Of a stretch of DNA of 11,672 nt, positions 168 to 2,206 are shown one piece after another. The position numbers and the translations under genes were made by a program. Source of the DNA: a virus (taxonomy: Duplodnaviria; Heunggongvirae; Uroviricota; Caudoviricetes); IMG/VR virus record IMGVR_UViG_2879770953_000002, positions 1 through 11,672 of that record; one strand, given 5' to 3'. Under the pieces are notes generated by a model. The model was given only the letters and a program-made list of their open reading frames with translations, searched no databases and had not been told where the DNA came from. Within the stretch, counting starts at the first letter, position 1. Each line of letters opens with the position of its first letter.

Positions 168-623
168 TTAAATACCGAGTGGGAAAATATCATGGCCTTG
201 TTCTTGCCAACTGGTGAGTTGCTGCTGTTGGGCGGAGGTTCGATTTTCACCGCACCACACCAGCAATGTACGGCCTTCGAATAGTTCAGGGCGTAGTTGA
301 TTGAGCGAGTGGGCGAGCGAGGACATCAATGCGCCATCCTTGTTGACTGGCAATCCAGCCCTCCAGCCACAGACGGGTGGTATCCTGAATATTCCAGCCA
401 ACCACCAGCGCATCTTTACCCTGTTTTTTACGTGCCGAAGCCAGACAAATGGCGATGTAGTTGATCAGTACGCCGTCGAGGATCGCCAGCAGCGCCTGGA
501 GAGTCGGTTGTTGGCACTGAAGCCGTCGGCGCAGAGGAATAAACAGATGTGTGGTGAGTGTCTGGGCGGGGTAATCCTGACCGCGCTCTTTGATCCACGT
601 TCGCAGGCTATGTAGATTGCCGC
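168..623 (-). pseudogene. mlrA: mlrA (yehV) MerR-family regulator, 3' segment, frameshifted
   Basis: Minus-strand translation from 620 downward reads GNLHSLRTWIKERGQDYPAQTLTTHLFIPLRRRLQCQQPTLQALLAILDGVLINYIAICLASARKKQGKDALVVGWNIQDTTRLWLEGWIASQQGWRIDVLA, then runs into a stop at 286-288. The protein continues in another frame (HSLNQLRPELFEGRTLLVWCGENRTSAQQQQLTSWQEQGHDIFPLGI, stop at 168-170). The frame break coincides with a tandem GCGAGCGA at 313-320. This segment joins seamlessly to 1934-2168 once IS629 and one copy of the CGC duplication are removed. Confidence 0.8.
621..623. repeat. 3-bp target-site duplication (CGC), left copy, flanking IS629
   Basis: CGC immediately outside the IS629 left inverted repeat; an identical CGC sits at 1934-1936 outside the right end. 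Removing the element and one copy restores an uninterrupted mlrA reading frame (..LTYLQS-G-NLHSL..). Confidence 0.85.
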
Positions 624-665
624 TGAACCGCCCCGGGTTTCCTGGAGAGTGTTTTATCTGTGAAC

Positions 666-1556
666 TCAGGCTGCCAGATCATCGTTTCCGATGGAAGCAT
701 AATAAGCTTTTTCTGCTTCTGCCGGAGGGATGTGGCCCAGCCTTTCCAGCAATCGTCGATTGTTATACCAGTCCACCCACGTTAGTGTGGCCAGTTCCAC
801 TTCTGCACGGTTTTTCCAGCTCTTACGGTGTATTACCTCCGCTTTGTAAAGACCATTGATGCTCTCCGCCATCGCGTTGTCATACGAGTCGCCTGTACTT
901 CCTGTTGATGCCAGTAATCCGGCTTCCTTAAGCCGCTGTGTGTAGGCCAGCGATACATACTGAGAACCTTTATCACTGTGATGGACCGTGCCGGACGGTC
1001 GACGGGCCCATAACGCCTGCTCCAGTGCATCCAGCACGAATGTCGTTTCCATGGACGATGAGACCCGCCACCCCACGATGTATCCGGCAAACACATCAAT
1101 GATGAACGCCACATAGACGAAGCCCCGCCATGTGCTGACGTAAGTAAAATCAGCCACCCACAGCTGGTCAGGTCGTTCTGCCACGAACTGACGGTTTACG
1201 CGGTCGCCTGCGGCAACGGCTTTCCGGCTGATGGTCGTACGGACCTTTTTACCCCGGAGAACACCGGCAAGTCCCATAACCGCCATGAGACGTGCCACAG
1301 TGCATCTGGCCACTCTGATACCTTCCCGTAACAACTGACGCCAGACTTTACGCACACCGTATACCTTGTGATTTTCATCGTATACGCGCTGTATCTCTTT
1401 CTTCAGCCAGTCATCGCGCTGCGCACGGGCACTGCGTTTATCCGGATGATGTCGCTGTTGCTGACAGTGGTAATACGTTGACGGGGCAATATGCAGTTCG
1501 CTGCATAGCGGTCCGACCCCGTACTGCTCACGCAGCTTATCCAGCAGTGGCATCAT
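666..1556 (-). CDS. IS629 OrfB transposase (DDE catalytic domain, IS3 family)
   Basis: 296-aa ORF from the track; IS3-family integrase-core-like sequence (..[31 protein letters not shown].. [11 protein letters not shown]..). Start overlaps the orfA stop (ATGA) next to an A6 run at the orfA/orfB junction. Confidence 0.9.
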
Positions 1557-1879
1557 TTTTTCCAGAGGCGGTCGAACTCCGCCTTCGCAAAATAAGCGGA
1601 AGCCTGGCGAAGGATATCGTTACTGCGGCGCAGTTCACGATTTTCACGCTCCAGCTCTTTCAGACGCTGACGTTCAGCGGTGGTGAGCCCTCCATCACCG
1701 CCCCCGGTATCCCGCTCATGCTGGCGACCCCAGACACGCAGAGTCTCCGGCGTACAGCCAATCTTTGGAGCAATGGAACAAATTGTCGCCCATTGTGAGT
1801 CATATTCGCCCTGACTTTCCAGAACCATACGGACTGCCCGTTGACGGACTTCGGGGGAAAAACGAGTATTTTTAGTCAT
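1553..1879 (-). CDS. IS629 OrfA (helix-turn-helix transposase N-terminal protein)
   Basis: 108-aa ORF from the track ([50 protein letters not shown].. with a leucine-zipper-like C-terminus); canonical IS3-family orfA. Confidence 0.9.
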
Positions 1880-1933
1880 CCTGTTTACCTCTTTCTCAGG
1901 AAGTTTAGTCTCCAGGATTCCCGGGGCGGTTCA

Positions 1934-1936
1934 CGC
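1934..1936. repeat. 3-bp target-site duplication (CGC), right copy, flanking IS629
   Basis: Matches 621-623; see the IS629 feature. Confidence 0.85.
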
Positions 1937-2168
1937 TTTGCAGGTAAGTCAGTAATGTTTCTTGCTGATCGCGCCAGACGTTCTGCACATCAACATTTTC
2001 ATTACTGAGCAGTATTTTAACTTTGCTGACCTGCACGCCGTTGTCGATCCAGCATTTGATCTCGCGGATCCGGTCAATATCGGCATCGTTGAACAGCCGA
2101 TGACCGCCGTCTGTCCGTTGCGGTTTCAGCAATCCGTAACGCCTCTGCCACGCGCGTAACGTGACAGG
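1934..2168 (-). pseudogene. mlrA: mlrA (yehV) 5' segment; MerR-type HTH region, lacks its native start
   Basis: Minus-strand translation reads ..[78 protein letters not shown], a MerR-family DNA-binding and dimerisation N-terminus. Upstream of PVTLRAW the frame reads [11 protein letters not shown] and hits a stop at 2202-2204 with no ATG, GTG or TTG start in frame; the first HTH helix appears shortened or replaced. The supplied track begins this ORF at an internal TTG (2130-2132). Confidence 0.75.
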
Positions 2169-2206
2169 GATTAAAGGTAAACCAATTGATTTTGCAAGTT
2201 TTTATT
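2169..2206. other. probable prophage attachment junction between mlrA 5' remnant and integrase 3' end
   Basis: mlrA-like coding sequence stops resembling a MerR N-terminus within this 38-bp interval, and the integrase stop codon is at 2207-2209. An integrase reading toward the junction is the usual lambdoid attL arrangement. The exact core sequence cannot be defined without the other junction. Confidence 0.35.

Follow-up and report, generated by a model that had tools for sequence, protein, structure and literature searches.

We analysed a stretch of Caudoviricetes DNA of 11,672 nucleotides (positions 1 to 11,672 of IMG/VR record IMGVR_UViG_2879770953_000002; hereafter the window), one end of which carries what is left of mlrA (yehV), the gene of a curli/biofilm activator, joined to the remnant of a prophage (Table 1). 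BLASTN comparison with the K-12 btsS–mlrA–yohO region gave two collinear pieces on the minus strand: window positions 624–1 correspond to K-12 mlrA from nucleotide 280 to the stop codon together with yohO (99.2% identity over 624 nucleotides), and positions 2174–1934 to mlrA nucleotides ∼44–283 (98.3% over 241 nucleotides). The two matches overlap by GCG (CGC on the plus strand) at 746–749 of the K-12 region, which is the target duplication of the insertion sequence (IS) that lies between them. The context is conserved as well, with yohO in place, yehW in synteny and btsS found with the start of mlrA at the other end of the prophage in the source genome. Judged by its nucleotide identity, the yohO/yehW synteny and Pfam matches to MerR_1 and MlrA_C, the gene is mlrA, the orthologue of K-12 b2127, and not a MerR paralog.

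An earlier reading of the letters alone (the sequence-only reading) had assigned 168–2206 to mlrA and described three lesions in it: a start lost at a junction with a phage integrase, a 1310 bp IS629 with a 3 bp CGC duplication in mid-gene and a frame break near the 3′ end. The gene is there, but mlrA-derived sequence ends at 2168, not at 2206. All three lesions lie where they had been described, the IS and its flanking CGC copies could be delimited exactly, and further changes came to light. No single open reading frame (ORF) of the window holds MerR_1, MlrA_helical and MlrA_C together; the domains are found only on separate fragments, MlrA_C on ORF 168–413 and MerR_1 likewise on mlrA fragments. 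The MerR_1 remnant lacks profile positions 1–15, the IS divides MlrA_helical in two and a frameshift affects MlrA_C, so that we are dealing with a pseudogene of the family and not with a functional member.

The 5′ lesion is a site-specific prophage junction. Homology to mlrA halts at window position 2168, at the edge of the 20 bp sequence CCTGTCACGTTACGCGCGTG, beyond which come a short phage arm and, from 2207, the integrase remnant. The missing 5′ end of mlrA and its upstream region, which the sequence-only reading had proposed to look for past the other end of the remnant, are found there in the source genome: ATGGCGCTTTAC...CCTGTCACGTTACGCGCGTG (mlrA nucleotides 1–68) lies at L004 8034–8101, ∼590–660 bp past window position 11672, and this stub ends in the same 20-mer (8082–8101) before phage DNA begins. 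The two copies are 10,093 bp apart; as it is found at both ends of the prophage, CCTGTCACGTTACGCGCGTG is the attachment (att) core. The phage arm is identical to that at the mlrA–prophage junction of enteroinvasive Escherichia coli (EIEC) O121 strain 201805972 and differs by 2–3 bases from that of O157:H7. An extra C at ∼2169 in the BLAST alignment might have been taken for an additional frameshift, but it is part of the phage arm, and the O157 and EIEC prophages have it too. At the junction 16 residues are exchanged for six, which removes the start of MerR_1 (beginning at residue 4 in K-12) and the first helix of its helix–turn–helix (HTH). Going upstream from the core, the frame stays open over 11 codons, and neither ATG, GTG nor TTG occurs in frame in the phage arm before the in-frame stop is reached. 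The 93-residue MerR product that annotation pipelines place here begins at ATT. The next in-frame TTG, at 2132, was considered as an intact alternative start and discarded: it would cost half of the HTH. The orphaned start has itself been approached by a further element: in the source genome a 1426 bp IS4 (L004 6517–7942) with an 11 bp duplication, CCCTATAGATG, lies 81–91 bp upstream of the orphaned ATG, inside the 222 bp btsS–mlrA intergenic region and outside the window.

RefSeq labels prophage-truncated mlrA elsewhere as an intact 233-residue 'HTH-type transcriptional regulator MlrA' with an ATT start (L002 3168–3869, L014 2668–3369 and L025 34104–34805). In O157 and EIEC this label on the prophage-joined gene is probably an annotation artefact.

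The second lesion is the IS. Its orfA and orfB overlap at 1553–1556, homologous copies are annotated 'programmed frameshift', and HTH_Tnp_1 and rve matches are on record for the 404-residue product under which the source-genome annotation lists the element. The element is 99.5–99.8% identical to copies on S. flexneri virulence plasmids (217–233 kb) and ∼96–98% identical to O157 copies annotated as IS1203 family. IS629 is reported to duplicate 3–4 bp of its target (PMC3271280). By its length, its inverted repeats, its two overlapping ORFs with a −1 frameshift element and its 3 bp duplication, the element belongs to the IS629/IS1203 isoform group, and it is in this sense that it is called IS629.

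The frame break near the 3′ end is real and consists of a 4 bp insertion relative to K-12, a tandem duplication that shifts the frame at codon 197, brings in a premature stop nine codons on and costs the protein the last 47 residues of the MlrA_C domain. The reading at the duplication is ...DVLARPLAQSTTP* where K-12 has ...DVLAHSLNQ...; when the IS and one duplication copy are removed in silico, the protein runs ...WRIDVLARPLAQSTTP* instead of ...WRIDVLAHSLNQ... In the ORF at 168–413 the native last 48 residues come after 32 out-of-frame ones. There are in addition three lineage-specific missense changes (R55C, M68I and G80V), at sites where K-12, O157 and EIEC keep the ancestral bases. All three fall in the 232 bp fragment between the junction and the IS, which has no synonymous change, while the 456 bp distal fragment has a single synonymous difference, at window position 174 (codon 242). 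This apparent clustering (three in the 232 bp fragment against one in the other 623 bp) was set aside, the binomial estimate being about 0.06 and not significant. MlrA has been called extremely conserved among E. coli strains that make Shiga toxin (STEC), with one variable residue (Chen et al.).

Table 1. Features of the window, with positions counted from its first nucleotide
Feature	Position	Strand	Remarks
yohO	1–108	−	Intact neighbour downstream of mlrA, synteny anchor; identical to K-12 yohO (BLASTN)
mlrA remains, overall	168–2168	−	98–99% identical to K-12
mlrA stop codon	168–170	−	Within mlrA 3′ fragment
mlrA 3′ fragment	168–623	−	K-12 nucleotides 284–732 plus 4 inserted bases; 99.2% identical to K-12
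4 bp tandem duplication GCGAGCGA	313–320	−	GCGA GCGA on plus strand; single copy in K-12; 4-base alignment gap
Left CGC target-site duplication	621–623	.	mlrA nucleotides 281–283 present on both sides of the IS
IS629-type element (IS3 family)	624–1933	−	1310 bp, between mlrA codons 94 and 95
Terminal inverted repeats of IS629-type element	624–648 and 1909–1933		25 nucleotides, 92% complementary
IS629-type orfB	666–1556	−	296 residues
ALIL frameshift pseudoknot	1482–1598		Rfam, 120 bits against a gathering score of 50
IS629-type orfA	1553–1879	−	108 residues
Right CGC target-site duplication	1934–1936	.	3 bp
mlrA middle fragment	1937–2168	−	K-12 nucleotides 49–280, codons 17–94
G80V missense	1978		mlrA middle fragment
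M68I missense	2013		mlrA middle fragment
R55C missense	2054		mlrA middle fragment
Attachment core CCTGTCACGTTACGCGCGTG	2149–2168	−	20 bp, mlrA nucleotides 49–68, codons 17–23; repeated at other prophage end
Phage arm	2169–2206	−	Takes the place of mlrA codons 1–16
Tyrosine integrase remnant	2207–2978	−	Pfam Phage_integrase; C-terminal 256 of 428 residues
IS600-like element (IS3 family)	2979–4242	+	1264 bp; HTH_Tnp_1 and rve ORFs
Rest of prophage remnant	4243–11672	.	Tail-fibre, tail-fibre-assembly, DUF4376, ipaH, methyltransferase, small RNAs; runs ∼590 bp further to attL-side core and mlrA start
ipaH	8719–10362	−	547 residues; LRR and NEL E3 ligase domains
Small RNA CssrB	10490–10669	+	Rfam gathering-score match, 230 bits; between ipaH and methyltransferase
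Methyltransferase	10678–11346	−	
Small RNA IS009	11426–11629	+	Rfam gathering-score match, 129 bits; overlaps tail-fibre assembly ORF

The whole window is 100% identical to GenBank entry CP054892.1 (GCA_013391345.1) and 99.99% identical to a second complete chromosome. Seven diagnostic strings were defined, covering the att junction, both IS junctions, the 4 bp duplication and the three single-nucleotide polymorphisms (SNPs); all seven occur in three independent complete genomes (CP054892.1, CP026098.1 and CP045522.1). The strings of the N-terminal fragment are found in at least eight further draft contigs from different assemblies, and the 93-residue fusion product is indexed in 39 collection blocks. 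As junctions and SNPs are identical across complete and draft genomes, the lesions are not an assembly artefact. The organism would be Shigella flexneri, going by the several ipaH copies, the closest plasmid copies of the IS, which are on S. flexneri plasmids, and the lesions published for serotypes 2a and 5. Among 5426 complete E. coli genomes, 458 (∼8%) have the mlrA–integrase junction at a query coverage of at least 80%, and the closest of these junctions (99.2%) are from EIEC; none of the 5426 has the IS at the S. flexneri position or the 4 bp duplication. The comparison of related strains that the sequence-only reading had suggested for ordering the events separates S. flexneri, in which the lesions recur, from EIEC, which has the prophage only.

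Part of this is in the published record. In Table S1 of Feng et al. (2011) mlrA (b2127) is scored 'i95;i197' in S. flexneri 2a 301 and S. flexneri 5 8401 and functional ('fun') in S. boydii, S. dysenteriae and S. sonnei; O157, with its mlrA prophage, is also scored 'fun', so this scoring is blind to the prophage junction. The same table gives csgA as 'i38' in both S. flexneri genomes, with csgF also broken, and different csg lesions in every other Shigella. The genes dgcE, dgcM and pdeR, which act upstream of MlrA or encode MlrA partners, are degenerate in S. flexneri 2457T (PMC11327459). In the open-access literature on mlrA/yehV in Shigella we found no paper discussing the locus, the supplementary table of Feng et al. 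(2011) being the sole record found.

The prophage shares the core and the phage arm of the mlrA/yehV attB prophages, has the core duplicated at both ends and carries a tyrosine integrase next to the junction. That mlrA/yehV is a lambdoid prophage integration site, as stated in the sequence-only reading, is documented (PMC3874044; PMC3530523) and agrees with the junction count in the complete E. coli genomes. The element of the window is not a complete inducible prophage: only 10.1 kb lie between the cores, without xis, replication, lysis or head genes. The integrase remnant is 98% identical to residues 173–428 of the full-length EIEC integrase and lacks the N-terminal 172 residues together with the xis gene. 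With only the C-terminal part of its integrase left, the prophage is a defective remnant, and with no xis either it is unable to excise, so that mlrA cannot be restored by excision. Two genes are cut by the IS600-like element, a tail-fibre gene at one of its sides and at the other the integrase, whose homology to that of O157 stops at 2978. Two fibre genes, one a truncated Phage_fiber_2 gene and the other with the N-terminal domain of prophage tail fibres, lie at positions 4243–8539 and 11403–11672 of the window, together with a DUF4376 gene and two tail-fibre assembly (Caudo_TAP) genes.

Window positions 7646–11672 recur at 99.95–100% identity in L005 and L007, where the flanking genes mark a second ipaH prophage site. 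In other assemblies with the same ipaH protein (L006, L009, L013 and L017, as against L004 and L011) the IS600-like element, at the inner edge of the remnant, joins the metG side or an hrpA-like helicase gene where the window has the integrase remnant and mlrA; the different DNA at this edge suggests IS600-mediated rearrangements between strains.

From the observed anatomy, junction identities and lineage distribution we infer both an order of events and a loss of function. We consider it highly probable (about 0.93) that the mlrA of the window is an S. flexneri pseudogene that arose by ordinary gene decay, the phage coming first and IS629, the 4 bp duplication, the missense changes and IS4 following. 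In this history a lambdoid phage carrying ipaH, the gene of a type III secretion system (T3SS) effector, would have recombined site-specifically into the 20 bp core in mlrA codons 17–23, an attB shared with the Stx1-type prophages of O157:H7. Integration would have parted the promoter and the first 16 codons, including the first MerR HTH helix, from the rest of the gene; by analogy with O157:H7, the same junction should silence mlrA here too. The silenced remainder would then have decayed unconstrained in the S. flexneri lineage: IS629 would have entered between codons 94 and 95, a 4 bp slippage duplication would have shifted the frame at codon 197, three missense changes would have accumulated and IS4 would have landed upstream of the orphaned ATG. 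Meanwhile the prophage would have shrunk to 10.1 kb and become fixed in place, its integrase cut by IS600 and its xis lost. Since the remainder of mlrA is undamaged in EIEC, where a larger prophage occupies this same site, integration probably came first. On the simplest reading, the S. flexneri lineage then acquired IS629, the 4 bp duplication, IS4 and the missense changes, all before the 2a/5 split. The 'long-standing' loss of function proposed in the sequence-only reading holds as far as i95 and i197 are common to S. flexneri 2a and 5, and no further. The link that it made with curli loss in an invasive lineage fits well, the lineage being S. flexneri, with ipaH in the window and csgA and csgF also broken.

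Several points weigh against this history. The name S. flexneri was reached by comparison and is not a recorded organism label. The order of events rests on the comparison with EIEC, which may have gained the prophage independently, because the EIEC and Shigella lineages are polyphyletic. Three nonsynonymous changes to one synonymous change (four in 855 bp) are too small a sample to prove relaxed selection. Finally, the 'fun' calls of Feng et al. (2011) are compatible with a 5′ prophage in the other Shigella.

A different view of the same lesions is that each was selected separately, with regulation of curli as an antivirulence trait lost pathoadaptively three times over instead of by neutral decay. 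In favour of such a view, every Shigella lineage has its curli genes broken, each by lesions of its own (Feng et al., 2011, Table S1), which suggests selection for loss of the pathway; mlrA itself has also been struck elsewhere, O145:H28 having an IS629 11 bp from the present one and 8% of complete E. coli genomes a prophage in the gene. Selection may indeed have acted on the first loss, which alone would be selectable, but not on the later hits: once the promoter and start had been removed, or csgA broken, further hits in mlrA would have had no phenotype to select on. Genes with two or three lesions are moreover common in the table of Feng et al. (2011), polB having three in S. dysenteriae. 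We regard selection of every hit as unlikely; redundant hits of this kind are what neutral decay yields in an IS-rich genome.

It is far less probable still that mlrA remains functional from an alternative start in the phage arm, in which case the 5′ junction would be no lesion at all. The frame that stays open upstream of the core would allow this, and the Prokaryotic Genome Annotation Pipeline (PGAP) calls the prophage-joined gene intact in O157 and EIEC, while annotation pipelines report a MerR product here; yet the open stretch has none of the three usual start codons, the call begins at ATT, and six residues stand in for 16 that include the first MerR HTH helix. In O157:H7 experiments tie the loss of mlrA expression and of curli to exactly this insertion (PMC3874044), and in the window IS629 and the frameshift destroy the gene whichever start is used. 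Least credible of all, to the point of being negligible, is that the truncation or the frameshift is an assembly or sequencing artefact or that the segment is another MerR paralog. Nothing was found in favour of either, although IS-rich genomes are generally prone to misassembly. Against an artefact or a paralog stand the identical junctions and SNPs in the three complete genomes and at least eight draft contigs of different assemblies, the same codon positions published for S. flexneri 2a and 5, and the 98–99% identity to K-12 mlrA with yohO/yehW synteny.

Decay of mlrA by this route fits the known loss of the DgcE/PdeR–DgcM–MlrA/CsgD/curli pathway in Shigella and is a clean case, resolved throughout, of a pseudogene decaying step by step in a host-restricted pathogen. 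No new biology follows from it: earlier work already records the prophage site, the family of the IS, both internal lesions of S. flexneri and the loss of curli in Shigella. Its uses are practical. As ordered markers (prophage, then IS629, the 4 bp duplication and IS4), the five lesions could date the loss of the curli pathway along the EIEC-to-Shigella continuum, and the label of an intact regulator, with its ATT start, on prophage-truncated mlrA in hundreds of E. coli genomes may mislead predictions of biofilm formation from genotype.

The ipaH prophage and the disruption of mlrA are co-located here. This raises the tentative idea, which we think somewhat doubtful, that in the ancestors of S. 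flexneri and of several EIEC lineages a single lysogenization both delivered a type III effector and turned off the curli/biofilm activator, and that this coupling mattered when invasive lineages emerged and has not previously been described. No paper that connects ipaH with mlrA in Shigella or EIEC turned up in the open-access literature. If true, a virulence gene would have been gained and an antivirulence regulator lost in one step, in convergence with O157:H7; this is a modest, plausible extension and not a new type of system.

Among the closest known counterparts are the Stx1-type prophages of O157:H7 (Sp15/CP-933V and truncated relatives), which use the same core in codons 17–23 and have a near-identical arm and integrase. 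They likewise part the promoter and start from mlrA, with loss of csgD/curli activation, and experiments in O157:H7 attribute the loss of mlrA expression and of curli to prophage insertion at this site (PMC3874044). They differ in that the cargo here is ipaH and not stx1, that only 10.1 kb of prophage, lacking xis and part of the integrase, remain here, and that the IS629, frameshift and missense lesions of the window are absent from O157:H7. The mlrA genes of S. flexneri 2a 301 and 5 8401 in Feng et al. (2011) correspond to the same gene with both internal lesions at the same codons, while the catalogue does not include the 5′ prophage truncation, the three missense changes, the upstream IS4 or a mechanism for either indel.

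The ipaH prophages found at mlrA in EIEC (for example O121 strain 201805972, CFSAN029787 and VL7S7) share the phage-side junction exactly, match the integrase at 98% identity and agree in gene order at the ipaH end. In strain 201805972 a 28.5 kb lambdoid prophage lies between a 66 bp mlrA stub and the rest of mlrA (L025 5588–34805); one end carries DinI, a tail-fibre assembly remnant, the methyltransferase, ipaHe, DUF4376 and a tail fibre, in the gene order of the window, and at the other end are xis and an int of full length. For five other EIEC genomes, the distance from the junction to the best ipaHe match is 27–51 kb, the two being collinear. Compared with the window, the EIEC prophage is larger, its integrase is full-length and xis is retained; the distal mlrA shows no other damage, that of strain 201805972 having no IS, no 4 bp duplication and none of the three missense changes.

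The mlrA of STEC O145:H28 (L003 4168–5864) carries an IS629-type element in the same orientation and matches window positions 1–1940 in one piece, which made a shared insertion a candidate. The event is an independent one, however: the element entered 11 bp from the S. flexneri site, and its distal flank, after an IS-associated deletion, consists of prophage late genes. The two insertions possibly mark a local hot spot.

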